Assembly: GCA_033286805.1 (NCBI GenBank)
Contig: GCA_033286805.1_4727.1
Origin: a phage
Length of the DNA: 64,000 nt
Strand: one strand, 5' to 3'
The first letter of the stretch is position 1, and the number at the start of each line of letters is the position of its first letter. Under the pieces are notes generated by a model. The model was not told where the DNA came from, searched no databases, and worked only from the letters and a program-made list of their open reading frames with translations. The translations under genes were made by a program, and so were the position numbers. Positions 3,372 through 36,693 of this stretch are shown here, piece by piece.

Positions 3372-3386
3372 CCACCTTCCTCCATG

Positions 3387-3908
3387 TTAAAGTGCGTTCA
3401 ATTCTTCAGGTGTACGTACAGTACGCGTGTTGGGATCAACCATTGCTGGCACACCCGCTGGACATTTACGGACATCGATCCGCATCTCCGGTTCGATCGG
3501 ACGAACGCGATACGTTTTGCCATCATCGGTTAACACCGAAATGGTCAACGCTTGGTTCAATTCACTAACGAAGTTCACCAAACGTTGTTGTCCGCCCTTC
3601 GACCAGAAGTTAAGATCGGTTTCTCCATTGAAATAACTGATTCCATCAGCGGTTCCAATCGTGATTTTAACGATACCCGGATAGTCACGAAGAAGAGGTG
3701 CCTGATAACCTTCATCTTCCGTATCCAGTTTTACCCACACGCCTCCCGTAGACAAACAGTTAACTTCCAAGGCGGTTGGTGCGCTGACTTCCGCCGATGA
3801 CCAGGTATACATCGTGCCTAGTTTAGCGTGTCCGGTTTCCAGCTCGCTGTAATCCCAAGCATGTGCTGATGCCGTAACAAATAAAGCCGCAAGAAACAAC
3901 TTTTTCAT
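3387..3908 (-). CDS. secreted/periplasmic protein (173 aa) with Sec-type signal peptide
   Basis: N-terminus MKKLFLAALFVTASAHA followed by W: n-region, hydrophobic core, AxA cleavage site. Confidence 0.6.
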   Translation of the reverse strand: MKKLFLAALFVTASAHAWDYSELETGHAKLGTMYTWSSAEVSAPTALEVNCLSTGGVWVKLDTEDEGYQAPLLRDYPGIVKITIGTADGISYFNGETDLNFWSKGGQQRLVNFVSELNQALTISVLTDDGKTYRVRPIEPEMRIDVRKCPAGVPAMVDPNTRTVRTPEELNAL

Positions 3909-3963
3909 TCTTTTCGATTCCTATTAAAAGTGACCGATTTCTGTGGTCGAGATTGCTAATAAA

Positions 3964-4425
3964 TTAATTCCGGTTTTGTTTCCGTATTGCACGGTTACGT
4001 TTACGTTCTTGGTCTTTGACTGTACCAAGAAACTTCTTTAATTCTGACGGTTCGAGTGTACCCTCACGTACCACACCGTTTTGTTCGATATGGTACGACC
4101 AATAACCAACTTCAGCCGTTAAGGATAACGTTGTCGGTTGTTCGTCAGGTAACGATCGGGGTGAGAAAATAAAGAGTAATTCAAAAGGCGTTTCTCGGCT
4201 GATGGTGGGACGGATACTAACGTCAAGACCCTCCCATCGCTGAGGTTTAAATATTCCTCCAGCAGCAATGATTGTCTCCGAGCGTTGATCTACAAGCTCG
4301 GCTAATTCACGATCATCGTTGAAATAAATATCGTGAAGAATATCTGTGTCGATAAAAAACCCGCGTTCCAAATCGTGACGAACAATGGAATTCTTCATTC
4401 TGCTGCCTTTGTTGTTTGTTTTCAT
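3964..4425 (-). CDS. hypothetical protein (153 aa; start uncertain, ATG also at 4398)
   Basis: ORF; no motif recognised. Confidence 0.5.
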   Translation of the reverse strand: MKTNNKGSRMKNSIVRHDLERGFFIDTDILHDIYFNDDRELAELVDQRSETIIAAGGIFKPQRWEGLDVSIRPTISRETPFELLFIFSPRSLPDEQPTTLSLTAEVGYWSYHIEQNGVVREGTLEPSELKKFLGTVKDQERKRNRAIRKQNRN

Positions 4426-4474
4426 GTCCTATACGAACACGAAAAACCGTTAATTTTTACCATAACCACATGCG

Positions 4475-4750
4475 TTAAAATTCCACACCGCGACCCGTCA
4501 TCGACGAAGGAACCGCGCGATAATAGAAGTAGATGTAATGGTCACGATGGCTAAAATAGTTTTTGCAAGCATAGAACTCTCCAGATCCAATGAATGATTT
4601 AATACGTGTAACTTGAGGGTGTCGTGCGATTAACGCCTGTATGACGATTTCCATTTGGTGTGCGCTCAAACCAGGTCGAGCTGCAACATGATAATGAAGC
4701 TCCCTAAGAAATCGTTTCCAGGGATCAGGTTGTGTCGATGATCGAGACAT
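4475..4750 (-). CDS. hypothetical protein (91 aa)
   Basis: ATG preceded by AAGGAGATAAAG; lies directly after terminator hairpin 4789..4806. Confidence 0.5.
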   Translation of the reverse strand: MSRSSTQPDPWKRFLRELHYHVAARPGLSAHQMEIVIQALIARHPQVTRIKSFIGSGEFYACKNYFSHRDHYIYFYYRAVPSSMTGRGVEF

Positions 4751-4788
4751 CTTTATCTCCTTAACGGTTGCTGGTAACGCGGCATAAA

Positions 4789-4806
4789 CCCTCCCCGAAG
4801 GGAGGG
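4789..4806 (-). terminator. intrinsic terminator hairpin (minus-sense CCCTCCC-UUCG-GGGAGGG) with TTTATGCCG tail
   Basis: 7-bp GC stem with UUCG tetraloop 11 nt after the stop of 4817..5374. Confidence 0.6.
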
Positions 4807-4816
4807 TGATTAACGA

Positions 4817-5374
4817 TTACTCCATCCATACTTCTTCGTCGTAATGATTTTCTATCGCATTACGCCAAAAACGCACGGTGTCCAAACTAATCGGCGCATA
4901 AAAATGCTGATCAACGCCGACATTAAGTCCGTTGGCCTTCGCTAACATACAGCGATGAATATGACCGAATAGATTGAAGTAGCCTGGGTTTCTTTCGCTG
5001 GGCTTATGGCATAGCCAGTAGGATTCGTCATTGCTAATCGGCAACACCAACGGATGTTCATAAACCGCAGCAAACCCCATACCGAGCAATTTATCACGCC
5101 ATGCTTCAAAGCTTAATCCTGTTGCTTTGTATGCGTCTTCGTCCCAATTCCCCAATACCAATTGAACCTGGATATCAGAACGAATGGCTTCCACGAACTC
5201 GAACTTACCCCAATCACCTAAATGCCATAACACACTGTTCTTTGGAAGCTTGTTGATGGCTTTCAGCATATGCTGGTTCATATCGGCGACGCTTGCGAAC
5301 GGACGGCGTGAATACGTCCATGTACGCTCGCTATCAAAATGGGTATCCGACATAAAGAAGATGGACGGGGTCAT
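4817..5374 (-). CDS. metallophosphoesterase (calcineurin-like, possible Ser/Thr phosphatase type), 185 aa
   Basis: Ordered metal-binding motifs SDTHF (DxH), GDWG (GD), GNWDE (GNHD/E-like), GHIH (GHxH). Confidence 0.7.
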   Translation of the reverse strand: MTPSIFFMSDTHFDSERTWTYSRRPFASVADMNQHMLKAINKLPKNSVLWHLGDWGKFEFVEAIRSDIQVQLVLGNWDEDAYKATGLSFEAWRDKLLGMGFAAVYEHPLVLPISNDESYWLCHKPSERNPGYFNLFGHIHRCMLAKANGLNVGVDQHFYAPISLDTVRFWRNAIENHYDEEVWME

Positions 5375-31850: not shown

Positions 31851-32489
31851 TTAACCTAATTTACCACCGGCGATGTTGGTGAAATCTTCGCCATCAGGAA
31901 CTTGCAGTAGGATACGTGCCATGTCCCAGTTGGTTAATGTAATTGCTTTATCATCGATACTCAGTTCTGGTAGGTCGAGTTCATGATCATCAAACTCGTA
32001 GGAAATACTCCACGTTTCGTCTGTTTTAGGATCGGTTATCAACACACCGTCTGTTACACGCATGTAGTCCGGATGCAATTCATTACTGAATGTGCTGAAC
32101 GGATCGGTGTAACACTCAGCATACCCCTCGATCTGCTGACGCTGTGCCTTCGTACGTAATTCAGGGCACGCCATGATCAGTTGTCGAGATATGCCGTTTG
32201 CAGCACGGAAGTCTTCCACGGTGTTACATGGCATAACCACATCGTCATGGAAGATGTTCTCCGATTGTCTCAGCAAAGTCTTACGGAGTTCAGCATAGTT
32301 TATCTGATTGAATGCATCGAACGTTGCTAACGATTCAGCGTAAAAATGCTTTACGTGTTCGCTCGCGCCGCCGAGGCTATTCATCAACTTGTGTCCATAC
32401 TCCATGAAGCTTTTATCGAGACCGGAGGACATTTCTCCGAACCTCAGTGCACGATAACTGTCTCGTCCACCTGTAAATATTTGCGCCAT
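31851..32489 (-). CDS. hypothetical protein (212 aa)
   Basis: ORF; protein-like composition. Confidence 0.55.
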   Translation of the reverse strand: MAQIFTGGRDSYRALRFGEMSSGLDKSFMEYGHKLMNSLGGASEHVKHFYAESLATFDAFNQINYAELRKTLLRQSENIFHDDVVMPCNTVEDFRAANGISRQLIMACPELRTKAQRQQIEGYAECYTDPFSTFSNELHPDYMRVTDGVLITDPKTDETWSISYEFDDHELDLPELSIDDKAITLTNWDMARILLQVPDGEDFTNIAGGKLG

Positions 32490-32504
32490 TACAGGCGTCC
32501 TCCT

Positions 32505-32741
32505 TTAGCAATGGTTGTTAGTTGCTTCTATTTCGTCAAGATAAGGTTCTACGTCATCGCCCTCCACGAATTCGTTGAACCAACAGTCAATGGTAGAAAT
32601 AACCGGTGACTGGTGTTCACATTTCTTAGATACCTTAAAAGGTACGTTATTATCCATCATACCGAGTTCGGGTCGGAATCTCCCGAAATGTTTCGCAGTC
32701 CAAATGTCTGGGACGATATGGTTGTTCATCAATATCTTCAA
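32505..32741 (-). CDS. small hypothetical protein (78 aa), doubtful
   Basis: TTG start in track, no convincing SD; abuts tandem structured element A. Confidence 0.3.
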   Translation of the reverse strand: MKILMNNHIVPDIWTAKHFGRFRPELGMMDNNVPFKVSKKCEHQSPVISTIDCWFNEFVEGDDVEPYLDEIEATNNHC

Positions 32742-32749
32742 TACGAATC

Positions 32750-33122
32750 GCTACTTCGTATCCGCAGCATTACCTGCAGCTCCTGGTGTTACCAGGATGT
32801 TGAGAGTATATCATGTCCATATTCCAAATGGAACGTAGGACTTCCGCGCTGGATCTCGCTTGAGACCGCTTACTCGTTGAACGTTCTCCTAAACGGAGCT
32901 TCGCTGCTGATTGGACATTGTTACGTACGGTAGGCGTCCCATTAAAGGGATTTTCATTGAAGCCGCGTACATCCGTTACCTTGTTTCTACCTTATCGGTT
33001 CCTCTTACGAGGCGTAACGGCTTTAGCCTATTCCAGCAATTCACGGAATGCATATTCTCCTTTTCAGGAGATAAGGCCATGGCTCTGGCATCACCGTCAA
33101 AGTCCACGTATCTTCAGTATGG
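32750..33122. repeat. structured element A (about 373 nt), unit 1 of a diverged tandem pair
   Basis: Shares collinear conserved blocks with unit B (ccgcagcattacctgcagctcctggtgttaccagga, gctgctgattg, ccttatcgg, ggctttagcc, cagcaattcacggaat); no ORF above 61 aa. Confidence 0.6.
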
Positions 33123-33480
33123 TTCGCTACTCCATACCCGCAGCATTACCTGCAGCTCCTGGTGTTACCAGGACGGAGAGATCATCTCATCACCCACGAA
33201 GGGTGTTCCGCGCTACCCTCAGCGAATTCGAGGGACATGATCGTTGAACCTTCCACCGATAATCGGCGGCTAGGCTGCTGATTGAACATTGTACGTTGGG
33301 GTGGCATCCTGGTGCAGGACTGTCGTTGAAGCCTCCCAACATCCACTCACTTATTTCCGCCTTATCGGCTCCCACAAGGGCAGAGTGGCTTTAGCCCGTC
33401 TCAGCAATTCACGGAATTCAAGCTCTTCCTTTCGGAAGGCAGGGCCTCATTTGAAGCGTTGTATCCCTTAAGGATCATCA
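33123..33480. repeat. structured element B (about 358 nt), unit 2 of the tandem pair; overlaps last ~26 codons of the beta' N gene
   Basis: Collinear with unit A; stems differ by compensatory changes (aggc/gcct vs gggc/gccc; tctcc/ggaga vs cttcc/ggaag). Confidence 0.6.
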
Positions 33481-34705
33481 CGCTTAACCCGATGGTGTTA
33501 TCCTGCGGATCGCGTTTAACCTTGGTGATTTCAAGACATTGGTTACTGCTTCGGTCAAGTGATGGGTTTCGAACAAAGCCGCACACAATCCCATCGAACG
33601 GTGTATCAGCAATAAGCTCATCGTGCAGCTCGCTCATCATCGGATGATAATTACGGACATGTTCCGCAACGAACGCACGTGCCGCTCTTGGCGAATAACC
33701 ACGATGGAATAACTTGGATTGGATATGTTCTTTATTGGTTAAAGTAAATGGTGCGTATGGGAAATGCAGATGATAATAACGATGGTTCGCTGTTATCGAA
33801 CTGATTACAGTACGCGTGGTGAATGGATGTAATGTACCTAATATGTTTTTACGTGTGATACCTTTCTTCTTACCGATGAACTCATCGAAAATTGCTGCGT
33901 GGTATTGCAGTAGCTTCAGTTGTACTTTCGCCATCCAGTTTTCTTTCTTTCTGGCGCTCAAAGGTGTTGTTGGGTGATAGATACTATTCAACGTACCGAT
34001 AGCATCGATCGCACCTTCCATTTTGCTATCTGCATAACGACCGGTCGGCGTATTTTCGATAACGAACATCATGGCCGCAGGAAAGCTGATATACTGACTG
34101 AAGAACTTATCACGATGGATACGGATGAATTCTCGTAGCGTGTCAACTTTCTCCGTGTTCTTCGGTCCACGTAACGTGGGTCCTTTATACAAGATCTCCA
34201 TGATACGATCGAAGTTCTGTATAAAGCTATTTACGCCACGTCGTATCCCGAATGCATCAAATTGCTGCTCTAGATAGTTCTTGAGTTCAATGGGTCGTTT
34301 TACATTTGGACGGTAACTGGCATCAATGAGCCACGTCATCGTTTCAAAGCTTTTGATATTCAACTCGCTTGCCAGCACGAGATGGACCAACGGGTTAATG
34401 AACGCATCGATTCCTTCAGGGACACGCGCCCAGACCGTCGAACGAATCTCTTGTTCTGCTGGGTAGGTTACAACCGTTTTACAGTTTGGACACACCGTGC
34501 CGAGTAGCTCACCACGATTGTAGAAACCACAACCACATTGTGGTGTGATATCCAACGTATCGCTGGAGTAAACACGGGTGATAAAACTGTTTAATTTCTT
34601 CTTCTCTTCGACGACTTTTGTATCGTAATCATTCAACAAAATCGGCGTAAAAGGAAGTTCTGCGAGCTGTCTATCGAAACTCACGATATCGAGCATGATG
34701 GCCAT
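33401..34705 (-). CDS. multisubunit RNA polymerase beta' subunit, N-terminal fragment (434 aa)
   Basis: CGCGFY...CPNCKTVV matches the beta' N-terminal zinc finger; GTLHPFTTRTVISS resembles GKRVDYSGRSVITV; EHVRNYHPMM...IVCGFV resembles EVIREHPVLL...LVCAAY; ORF ends where NADFDGD would follow. Confidence 0.65.
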   Translation of the reverse strand: MAIMLDIVSFDRQLAELPFTPILLNDYDTKVVEEKKKLNSFITRVYSSDTLDITPQCGCGFYNRGELLGTVCPNCKTVVTYPAEQEIRSTVWARVPEGIDAFINPLVHLVLASELNIKSFETMTWLIDASYRPNVKRPIELKNYLEQQFDAFGIRRGVNSFIQNFDRIMEILYKGPTLRGPKNTEKVDTLREFIRIHRDKFFSQYISFPAAMMFVIENTPTGRYADSKMEGAIDAIGTLNSIYHPTTPLSARKKENWMAKVQLKLLQYHAAIFDEFIGKKKGITRKNILGTLHPFTTRTVISSITANHRYYHLHFPYAPFTLTNKEHIQSKLFHRGYSPRAARAFVAEHVRNYHPMMSELHDELIADTPFDGIVCGFVRNPSLDRSSNQCLEITKVKRDPQDNTIGLSVMILKGYNASNEALPSERKSLNSVNC

Positions 34706-34797: not shown

Positions 34798-36693
34798 TTA
34801 GAACAGGTTGAATGCCCCACCCATGTTGTTAACGCCAACATTCGGACGATCGCTACGTGCGTAGATGTTACCGGAGATGTTACCCAGACCACGAGCACGT
34901 GCTGCCATGTTACCACGAACGGCGGTACCTGCCAGATGCTGGATGTTCTCAGGACGGATGGTGAAGCCAGCATCAGCCGCAGCTTCGATCAGCGCCTGCA
35001 GTGCTAACGGATCGAAGTCGTAACGCATTGCCCAGCCGGTTTGTTCCCAGCTACCAGACAGAACACGATCGATGATTTCGTGACGAGCGACAACACGCTG
35101 AGACATCGTCATATCGGTACGGTCGAAGCTGTCTTCCCAAGCTTCTACGGTATCCGGGTTAGTGATGTTCATCATGTACAGATCGTCCATATCACGAATA
35201 TCGTGACGGTGACCATCCTGGTGGTTGTAGTAACCCAGCGGGATACGGTTACCGGTAGCGTAGACCAGCGGTTGGCCGTATTGATATTTCTTGCTGAAGC
35301 AACCCAGGGTAGTATCATCGAAGGCACGGTAGAGTGCTTTGTAACCTTCGGAGATTTCCCGGACTTCACCTTCAACTTTGCCCGTAAAGATCTTCTCAGC
35401 CGCCGGGATCATACGCAGCAGCCAGCTATACTCGCCTTCTTCTGGTACGTCGATAGAAATCAGCAGAGACGGATACAGAACCTGTTGCAGGAACTTGTAA
35501 ATCTGCTCGTTGGTTTGCGTAGACAGATCCAGCGGTGCAGTCACTTCAGGATCCAGCACCATCGCCAGAGCACCTGGGTTATGCGGACCAATACCACGAG
35601 CCGCGTTGCTGATTAAAGACTGTGCCCATGCCATGCCGCTGTTCAGCGTAGCGATGGTACCAATCAGACCCAGCACGAAGCTGTTCGGTGTGAACGCATC
35701 CAGCTCCAGCGGGTAAACGCTGGTCATCACGTAACGCGGCTGGTATTGTACAGTCGGCGGTACCGGATAGCCGTTAACCAGAACAGGGCCTTGGTTGAAG
35801 GTCGGGTTCTGCGGGCTGTAGGTCAGGTCAATGTAACCGGTGGTGGCGACCAGACGCTGTTGACTATCGTAATCGCTCATCGCTTGACGGATGCGGTTAG
35901 AGATAGTTACAGTGATGTCAGAACGCACAGGGTTACCAACAATATCGCTGTCCTGCATACCGCTGGTGTTGTACTGAACGCTGCTGATTGGCTGATCGCT
36001 TGCCATCATGCCCAGGTTGAACTGCGGCAGACCCAGTTTATCACCGAGACGGATTTCGATCGCGGTTTGGATTGCGTTATCTGCAGCAGACAGCAGGGTG
36101 GTTGCCAGATGCGCAGATTCAGCGGTGATTTCATTGGTCACCACAGCCAGACCAGCGATACGAACAGTACCGTTAGACTTACCGCCAATAGCTGAATACA
36201 TTGCCGCCATGACTTCGTTGATGAACGTACCGTTCAGGTTATCAACCCAGGTACGCGGTACCAGAATGTTACCATGCGGACCTTGTTCTTCACGACGCGG
36301 CAGCGGAGCCAGACCAGCAACCAGCGGCAGGACGTAACCGAAGAAGTGGTTATGATCACCAACTTTTGCACCGCTCATAACAACCAGGGTCGGATACGGT
36401 ACGCTGTACTGGTTCGGGTCAACCGCAACAAAGATGAAGTCGTCTTTGAACTGGGTATCTTCCAGATATTTCTCCATCAGACGACGGAGATTCAGTACCT
36501 GCTCGGAGCCGGTATTACGGCTGATACGACGGCTCAGTGTACGGTTGATCGTACGCATCGTATGAGTTACTTTAGGACGGTCGGCAAAATCTGCAGCGGT
36601 TTCCAGCGCCTCATCAGCACGTTGTGCGGTGCGGGTTTCAGCTGCACGAATTTCTACATTATCGTTACCGTTATTACGTACGTCTAAGCCCAT
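34798..36693 (-). CDS. chmA: candidate chimallin (phage-nucleus shell protein), 631 aa
   Basis: Length matches recalled chimallin size; strong codon bias; early-promoter-like motif 73 nt upstream; GC hairpin terminator just downstream; PhuZ-like gene 11 genes away; no alignment done. Confidence 0.5.
   Translation of the reverse strand: MGLDVRNNGNDNVEIRAAETRTAQRADEALETAADFADRPKVTHTMRTINRTLSRRISRNTGSEQVLNLRRLMEKYLEDTQFKDDFIFVAVDPNQYSVPYPTLVVMSGAKVGDHNHFFGYVLPLVAGLAPLPRREEQGPHGNILVPRTWVDNLNGTFINEVMAAMYSAIGGKSNGTVRIAGLAVVTNEITAESAHLATTLLSAADNAIQTAIEIRLGDKLGLPQFNLGMMASDQPISSVQYNTSGMQDSDIVGNPVRSDITVTISNRIRQAMSDYDSQQRLVATTGYIDLTYSPQNPTFNQGPVLVNGYPVPPTVQYQPRYVMTSVYPLELDAFTPNSFVLGLIGTIATLNSGMAWAQSLISNAARGIGPHNPGALAMVLDPEVTAPLDLSTQTNEQIYKFLQQVLYPSLLISIDVPEEGEYSWLLRMIPAAEKIFTGKVEGEVREISEGYKALYRAFDDTTLGCFSKKYQYGQPLVYATGNRIPLGYYNHQDGHRHDIRDMDDLYMMNITNPDTVEAWEDSFDRTDMTMSQRVVARHEIIDRVLSGSWEQTGWAMRYDFDPLALQALIEAAADAGFTIRPENIQHLAGTAVRGNMAARARGLGNISGNIYARSDRPNVGVNNMGGAFNLF

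Follow-up and report, generated by a model that had tools for sequence, protein, structure and literature searches.

Several group I introns described previously resemble the locus analysed here. Introns in phiKZ gp55 are reported in a passage of PMC11512511 that cites Ceyssens 2014, and an intron is known in the virion RNA polymerase (vRNAP) of PhiPA3, where work on phiKZ-like phages found that an intron endonuclease mediates competition between them (PMC11620839). Very short exons occur elsewhere. Introns 2 and 3 of Twort orf142 flank a 23-nt exon and exon skipping was shown experimentally (Landthaler & Shub 1999, as relayed in PMC10136302); the tandem introns of the Coxiella burnetii 23S rRNA gene flank a 34-nt exon, phiNIT1 contains a 'small exon', and SIOphi (Bastillevirinae) has multi-intron genes (PMC10136302, PMC11878797). 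The present locus lies in a 64,000-nucleotide stretch of phage DNA (GenBank assembly GCA_033286805.1, contig GCA_033286805.1_4727.1), referred to below as the window, in a 0.7-kb gap that had been read as free of genes. We are highly confident that this gap is not intergenic and that it comprises two tandem group I introns, A and B, each without an open reading frame (ORF), inside a single minus-strand gene for the β' N-part of the non-virion RNA polymerase (nvRNAP). The element type is already known; the arrangement is unusually tight and was previously unannotated. The predicted layout, in the order of transcription, is as follows.

33455..34705, minus strand: exon 1, 417 codons, ending ...ILKGYNA (AAC GCT); placed by translation, Goslar gp247, Pfam and PDB
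33105..33454, minus strand: intron B, 350 nt, ORF-less group I, ending ...ACGTG; placed by Rfam, fold, covariation and intron-less alleles
33087..33104, minus strand: micro-exon, 18 nt, GAC TTT GAC GGT GAT GCC (DFDGDA); placed by gapless homologue alignment
32730..33086, minus strand: intron A, 357 nt, ORF-less group I, ending ...ATATTG; placed by Rfam, fold, covariation and intron-less alleles
32505..32729, minus strand: exon 3, 74 codons and stop, MNNHIVPDIWTAK...NNHC before the stop, opening ATG AAC AAC CAT (MNNHIVPD); placed by homologue alignment

The phiKZ gene 55 intron interrupts the same host gene in the same catalytic-site region and is homologous to the window introns, sharing the P3/P4/P6/P7 cores and the P9-P9.1-P9.2 tail at 52-55% identity. 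However, phiKZ has one intron, located 3 nt upstream of the intron B site and carrying an HNH endonuclease in its P1 loop, and its exon 2 is gp56.1, whereas in the window there are two introns, neither with an ORF, at A↓D and DFDGDA↓ (arrows mark splice sites), with the micro-exon between them. The spliced phiKZ protein is the form present in the solved enzyme (7OGP). The orthologous locus of Escherichia phage vB_EcoM_Goslar also contains a tandem pair around a micro-exon. The Goslar intron 2 is orthologous to intron A, whereas the upstream Goslar intron is a different, HNH-bearing group I intron, inserted 8 nt further downstream than intron B. Twort orf142 offers a comparable combination, a phage gene in which two group I introns that resemble each other enclose a very short exon; in the window the enclosed exon measures 18 nt (relatives: 13 nt), carries the codons of the catalytic triad and is predicted from the sequence. 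The Coxiella, phiNIT1 and SIOphi systems likewise have short internal exons between group I introns, with skipping in some, but they involve other genes and intron subgroups, and three introns within 27 nt of coding sequence, as found in relatives of the window phage, are not reported there. No published description of the Goslar-type tandem or triple intron arrangement was found; the one paper that mentions Goslar as well as group I introns does not connect the two. The micro-exons of this family are the shortest phage micro-exons that we found reported, and they stand out also by their metal-binding-triad content and by the density of insertion sites.

Interrupted gene and predicted splice junctions

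The window region is 94.7% identical to Goslar (NC_048170). ORF calling placed minus-strand genes on both sides of the gap, a 434-aa ORF (33401..34705) and a 78-aa ORF (32505..32741). The counterpart locus of Goslar is annotated with gp247 'RNA polymerase beta subunit', one 'Intron_gpI', an HNH endonuclease and the small hypothetical protein gp185, and exon 1 is 98.3% identical to Goslar gp247. Because the uninterrupted homologues are PhiPA3 gp054 and the DT01 "non-virion-associated RNA polymerase subunit beta/beta''", the interrupted gene is assigned as a homologue of phiKZ gp55, the nvRNAP β' N-part.

An initial sequence-only reading of the window had noted that the β' frame breaks off where the catalytic segment would be expected, and it does so exactly at ...GYNA, before DFDGD. 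From that point the exon 1 ORF extends over the first 54 nt of intron B and closes with a TGA at 33401..33403, so that the overlap, previously put at about 26 codons, amounts to 17 codons and the stop. The downstream ORF, called mechanically as a separate 78-aa ORF (32505..32741), had been judged not to continue β'. Its MNNHIVPD... segment nevertheless follows DFDGDA without a gap relative to the homologues and to 7OGP chain A, and its counterparts are phiKZ gp56.1 and Goslar gp185, the latter annotated 'hypothetical protein'. The micro-exon was overlooked in the sequence-only reading because a single intron was sought, and the two units, then delimited as 32750..33122 and 33123..33480, are redrawn here as intron A at 32730..33086, the micro-exon at 33087..33104 and intron B at 33105..33454.

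Joining exon 1, the micro-exon and exon 3 gives a predicted product of 497 aa, with the peptide GYNADFDGDAMNNHIVPDIWTAK across the junctions. Alignment of this product with the DT01 and PhiPA3 proteins is gapless only when DFDGDA is included (NADFDGDAMNNHIVPD / NADFDGDALWGELPLD / NADFDGDQLNLTLMPD), and omission of the alanine codon leaves a one-residue gap after DFDGD. Chain A of the solved phiKZ enzyme (PDB 7OGP) is a single chain, 'PHIKZ055' joined to 'PHIKZ056.1', and matches product residues 21-476 (E 8.6e-75) without gaps across both junctions and NADFDGD. The Pfam domain RNA_pol_Rpb1_2 is found at product residues 371-428, covering both junctions. The micro-exon is thereby predicted to supply the β' active site with its Mg-binding aspartate triad; it lacks a start codon and a ribosome-binding site of its own, and 4 codons upstream, within intron B, there is an in-frame TGA. 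Its codons vary only synonymously across six allele types, and this synonymous-only variation around the sites indicates that the micro-exon is translated.

Natural alleles fix both junctions. Two Goslar-like metagenome contigs of ~238-240 kb (L097 and L100) contain intron B alone, and at the site of the absent intron A they read continuously GAC TTT GAC GGY GAC GCR ATG AAC. Goslar and the L014-type genomes are without intron B and have the continuous sequence AAT GCN GAY TT at its site. Precise removal of the two introns restores a continuous conserved coding sequence, and intron-less alleles exist at both sites. For intron A, GCC↓AUG is the sole fitting junction and is confirmed by L097 and L100.

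Three other candidates for the intron A junction were rejected. A 5' site at GGU↓ loses the third aspartate, GAU↓ with the AUG acceptor yields a protein one residue shorter than all homologues, and GAU↓ with an upstream AAG↓ acceptor yields one residue too many.

These observations bear on the possibility that the two units are stand-alone duplicated non-coding RNA genes lying between two protein genes, one of the readings left standing by the sequence-only reading. Two similar structured units with covariation would agree with it. However, the units are full-length group I introns, their precise removal restores one conserved ORF, related genomes that lack one or the other unit have continuous coding sequence there, and no Rfam family other than group I matches the two units. 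We regard duplicated non-coding RNA genes as hardly credible; the other reading that had been left, a mobile element in the polymerase gene, is retained.

Group I fold, covariation and splice-site pairing

The functional strand of both units is the minus strand. A permissive Rfam scan of 32000..34500 (2.5 kb) aligned RF00028 (Group I catalytic intron; gathering score 50 bits) over model positions 1-253 to both units on this strand, at 32782..33102 in the intron A unit (28.0 bits, E 1.6e-4) and at 33158..33465 in the intron B unit (26.4 bits, E 4.7e-4). In the whole 64-kb window these units are the only Rfam matches with E ≤ 1 (E 0.004 and 0.012). The P, Q, R and S cores, which had been reported absent, are present on the minus strand as AAUUGCUGG, AAUCAGCAGC, GUUCAACGA and a AUGAUAUACUC-type S element. 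The combined core pattern GAATTGCTG...ATCAGCAGC...GTTCAACGA occurs at only these two places in the window and in 0 of 100 shuffles. A further hit of the core-pattern scan, in L012, was set aside as a chance match. The terminal ωG is found at 33105 for intron B (...ACGUG↓) and at 32730 for intron A (...AUAUUG↓). All 10 aligned sequences have G-C as the first P7 pair, which by its position is the putative guanosine-binding site. The subgroup looks IA-like, with P7 and P3' separated by one P7.1-like hairpin and with a large extension of P5. Neither intron contains a minus-strand ORF above 61 aa, and hence neither encodes a homing endonuclease; the earlier statement that the gap holds no ORF above 61 aa is correct for the minus strand inside the introns and fails on the plus strand.

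The introns were folded with unconstrained RNAalifold, using window introns A and B and the Goslar and L014 orthologues of intron A. The program returned P1, P2, P3, P4, P5 with a two-branch extension, P6, the P7.1-like hairpin, P8, P9, P9.1 and P9.2, with 100 consensus pairs, 31 of them showing compensatory double changes. Two spurious-looking terminal pairs were removed and the P7 pseudoknot was added by hand, giving 98 + 5 = 103 pairs. In this final model 98.8% of the cells pair (4 sequences, 103 pairs), and double changes occur in 32 of the 103 pairs, compared with 9.6 ± 2.5 in column shuffles (0 of 500 reach 32) and 1-2 in slid controls. A ten-sequence alignment is 96.8% paired and has the same 32 double-change pairs; the missing pairs are in three helices of the P5 extension, in which the MAFFT alignment has the B rows displaced by one column, so that the 4-sequence alignment is the cleaner test. 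Within the P3/P7 pseudoknot P7 is 100% paired with 2 covarying pairs, the variants being GAGUA/UACUC in intron A, GAUCA/UGAUC in intron B and GAAUA/UAUUC in Goslar intron 2, and the canonical GACUA/UAGUC in the phiKZ intron and L014 intron 0. Minimum free energy (MFE) folds of the single sequences also give the group I topology (z -2.7 for B and -2.8 for A). The helices are located as follows.

Intron B core, minus strand: P3 33416..33410/33212..33206, P4 33406..33401/33281..33276, P7 33242..33238/33184..33180
Intron B tail, minus strand: P9 33173..33157, P9.1 33155..33138, P9.2 33137..33117
Intron A core, minus strand: P3 33048..33042/32848..32842, P4 33038..33033/32910..32905, P7 32875..32871/32808..32804, P8 32841..32815
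Intron A tail, minus strand: P9 32797..32781, P9.1 32779..32762, P9.2 32761..32741

By eye, intron A P8 (32815..32841, minus strand; CCUACG...UAUGG) is one base off the classical 11-nt GAAA-tetraloop receptor. The L2 loop of intron A (33061..33066, minus strand) is GAAA, and the P8 of intron B is short and without that receptor.

The structural proposals of the sequence-only reading fared well where they concerned the RNA itself. The covariation, which it had named as a check on aligned homologues, is found in 32 of 103 pairs and is far above the shuffles, as expected of a structured RNA under selection and not of a decaying duplication. Two of its three compensatory stems have places in the model, tctcc/ggaga vs cttcc/ggaag as P2 and cctc-ttac-gagg vs ccc-acaa-ggg as a hairpin of the P5 extension, whereas aggc..gcct vs gggc..gccc corresponds to no helix. 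Its verdict that a self-splicing intron was not supported is overturned, both units being group I introns by Rfam, fold and junctions.

The same data bear on whether the units could be dead relics, decayed introns that no longer splice, leaving the gene broken or expressed as 434-aa and 78-aa polypeptides without DFDGD. Rfam scores below threshold, the lack of a homing endonuclease ORF and the listing of the Goslar pieces as separate proteins in GenBank would agree with decay. Yet 98.8% base pairing with 32 compensatory pairs, including pairs of the catalytic P7, is retained, the P7 G-C at the expected guanosine-binding position is invariant, the micro-exon changes only synonymously despite having no start codon, and the phiKZ enzyme contains the fused gp55/gp56.1 chain. 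DFDGD is, to our knowledge, an essential metal site in all multisubunit RNA polymerases, which also counts against relics. Decay of this kind is therefore considered very improbable.

The two introns differ at the 5' splice site. In intron B, P1 pairs GCU↓UC with GAGGC and has the canonical U.G. In intron A, P1 pairs GCC↓A with UGGC, with C-G in place of the U.G wobble seen in the other 9 of 10 aligned family members, including the intron A orthologues of Goslar (intron 2), L014, L096, L098 and L101. The C-G pair is not an error because L009, an independent 237.5-kb assembly, has the same tandem arrangement and the identical C-G sequence. The MFE fold of intron A lengthens P1 by UGA/UUA, and its guide CAUGGC, as read from the sequence, is complementary over its whole length to GCC↓AUG, the ligated junction.

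The splicing model itself is considered very probable. In it two group I self-splicing introns flank the DFDGDA micro-exon of the nvRNAP β' gene, and it is based on the fold, the covariation, the homology to known introns, the collinearity of the spliced product and the intron-less alleles at both junctions. Each intron would fold as a group I ribozyme (P1-P9.2 with the P3/P7 pseudoknot), its internal guide sequence pairing with the end of its upstream exon, GCU in the case of intron B and GCC in that of intron A. An external guanosine would attack at the 5' splice site, after which the freed exon would attack behind the intron's terminal G. One round of this at each intron would join exon 1, the micro-exon and exon 3 into the mRNA of the 497-aa protein with NADFDGD intact; without splicing only a truncated subunit missing the metal-binding aspartates would be made. 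In vivo self-splicing of both introns, the splicing order and the route of mobility are what we infer from these features.

Several points weigh against this model. At the gathering threshold Rfam gives no match to either unit (28.0 and 26.4 vs 50 bits), so that the Rfam scan proposed with the sequence-only reading succeeds at full length only under permissive settings; the low RF00028 score is attributed to the large P5 insertion and the variant P7. The C-G pair of intron A departs from the family rule, and in work on the Tetrahymena intron C-G at the 5' splice site slows the first step. No convincing P10 was found in intron B. An 18-nt exon between two ribozymes of ~350 nt may also hinder their simultaneous folding. 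The design rules for circularisation with the Anabaena intron accept a pyrimidine (Y) at -1 (PMC12355055).

These features could instead describe a variant with impaired or regulated splicing, where intron A is poor or helper-dependent, or where the two introns cross-react so that the micro-exon is skipped and a catalytically dead subunit results. The C-G at the 5' splice site is confined to window-type intron A, both 5' splice sites are GCY (GCU/GCC) with GGC in both guide sequences, and the P9/P9.1 segments of the two introns share an identical 36-nt stretch. Skipping of an exon is on record for Twort orf142, for the 23S gene of Coxiella and for the SIOphi terminase (PMC10136302, PMC11878797), and the middle exon is also skipped when tandem introns are engineered to have the same splice-site sequences (PMC10136302). 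On the other hand, the arrangement recurs in the independent L009 assembly and is compatible with a viable phage, the micro-exon is strictly conserved at the protein level, and the intron A guide is perfectly complementary to the ligated junction. Impaired or regulated splicing is judged unlikely.

Relation of the two introns and insertion sites in relatives

The two collinear units recognised from the sequence alone correspond to four direct-repeat blocks of 82, 60, 34 and 24 nt in 32650..33520, with 75-88% identity and a spacing of 368-376 nt. The identical 36-nt core with a hairpin, also noted at that time, is real: 32762..32797 and 33138..33173 (minus strand) match exactly and comprise the P9 hairpin (TCCTGGT-AAC-ACCAGGA) and P9.1. 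The same stretch of intron A has 5 differences from its Goslar orthologue, and the sharing of P9/P9.1 suggests sequence exchange between the tandem introns.

Overall, introns A and B are about 63-65% identical, with long conserved blocks, compared with 84% for intron A and Goslar intron 2, and the similarity differs by region. In P1-P2 intron B is near Goslar intron 2 (84%) and A differs from both (53-55%). From the P5 extension to P8 it is A that is near Goslar intron 2 (91-96%) and B that is far (41-64%). In P9-P9.1 introns A and B are 93% identical and both unlike Goslar. By these comparisons introns A and B are classed as old paralogues with mosaic exchange and not as a recent duplication. 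ACGCT is the end of the 5' exon both at intron B (ACAACGCT) and at Goslar intron 2 (GTGACGCT), which would make the P1-P2 modules interchangeable between the two sites. In one reading, considered improbable, intron B would descend from an intron-2-type element that moved by ectopic transposition to the nearest ACGCU upstream; the 84% identity of its P1-P2 to that of Goslar intron 2 and the shared ACGCU end of the 5' exons would agree with this.

Relatives were surveyed by running nhmmer with the family hidden Markov model (HMM) on 95 loci. In this gene family insertions cluster in the catalytic-site codons, a hot spot with at least 8 sites within about 33 nt. Four configurations occur among Goslar-like genomes, namely B only, B + A, 1 (HNH) + 2, and 0 + 1 + 2; presence and absence vary among close relatives at fixed sites in a conserved gene, as in homing introns. 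The arrangements in relatives are as follows.

phiKZ: a single homologous intron, inserted at N↓ADFDGD and bearing HNH gp56 in its P1 loop (Rfam 75.6 bits)
Goslar: upstream intron (46.9 bits) with HNH in P9, after GAC TT; then the 13-nt micro-exon CGACGGTGACGCT; then intron 2
L014, L096, L098 and L101: three introns, GGG T ↓ intron 0 ↓ ATAATGCAGATTT ↓ intron 1 ↓ CGACGG(T/G)GA(C/T)GCT ↓ intron 2
L043 (3300..5680) and L044, more distant jumbo phage: two introns (68.7 and 83.7 bits) around the 21-nt exon CCAAATGCTGATTTTGACGGT (PNADFDG)
L032: intron after DFDGD↓
L039 and L041 (3355..~5600): interruption of ~2.2 kb after DFDG↓ with an ORF inside; downstream exon located

L014 (400..1548, minus strand), L096, L098 and L101 thus have two 13-nt micro-exons, with three introns in 27 nt of coding sequence, and their intron 0 splits a Tyr codon (GGG T↓AT). 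The first intron of L043/L044 contains a 532-aa ORF (3375..4973). L042 has the same DFDG↓ break from 3355 as L039 and L041, in which alone the downstream exon was located. No group I core was detected in the L039/L041/L042 interruption by Rfam (E ≤ 0.1) or the family HMM; the interruption may be a divergent intron or an insertion of some other type. A distant blastn search of isolate phages returned Goslar as the sole orthologue, and otherwise just short universal cores matched.

In the 30 nt encoding GYNADFDGDA, taken from window region 33087..33466 and compared with Goslar, L014, L097 and L100, up to 7 of 30 positions differ, all synonymously, while exon 1 as a whole is 97-98% identical among Goslar-like alleles. 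This cluster of synonymous changes at the sites fits co-conversion tracts or escape from endonuclease recognition. How the ORF-less introns move is a matter of speculation: recombination in co-infection is the probable route, possibly helped in trans by the HNH endonuclease of the neighbouring intron in Goslar-type phages, and reverse splicing is another candidate. With up to three introns at once in the catalytic-site codons of relatives, these codons might be a battleground of competing introns, introns A and B yielding both exon-including and exon-skipping mRNA in a ratio set by the C-G pair. If so, the phage would tune, or be burdened by, a dead β' subunit without DFDGDA; we consider this combination improbable.

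The two-intron model with normal joining of the exons corrects the gene model, in that one essential gene replaces what looked like a small hypothetical protein and, across a gap, a truncated polymerase subunit. The Goslar GenBank record is split likewise (NC_048170, 1596..4884) into gp247, the HNH endonuclease and gp185 with one intron marked; no annotation exists there for intron 2 (Rfam 16.7 bits), for the 13-nt micro-exon or for the joining of the exons, and the Rfam gathering threshold misses this intron family. To express or engineer a Goslar-type nvRNAP, the spliced sequence is required. Exons as short as 18 and 13 nt, set between full-size ribozymes, are relevant to the shortest exon that group I splicing tolerates, and the same loci bear on the independent folding of neighbouring ribozymes and the conditions for exon skipping. 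Introns at neighbouring positions, down to 3 nt apart, in the codons of the metal-binding aspartates offer a compact case of mobile-element competition for one conserved target, a topic of more interest since the intron endonuclease result in phiKZ-like phages (PMC11620839).

Antisense to the introns, the plus strand of the gap contains three ORFs of 106-109 aa with GTG/TTG starts (window 32613..33247). Pfam has no match to any of them, and they probably arose by chance in a structured RNA of balanced G+C content. According to the Goslar annotation, the counterpart locus is directly downstream of the nuclear shell (chimallin) gene, and by synteny the 631-aa ORF just upstream of the window locus (34798..36693, minus strand) is assigned as the nuclear shell protein. 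Because of this chimallin-type ORF beside the locus, the window is assigned to a Goslar-like nucleus-forming jumbo phage.

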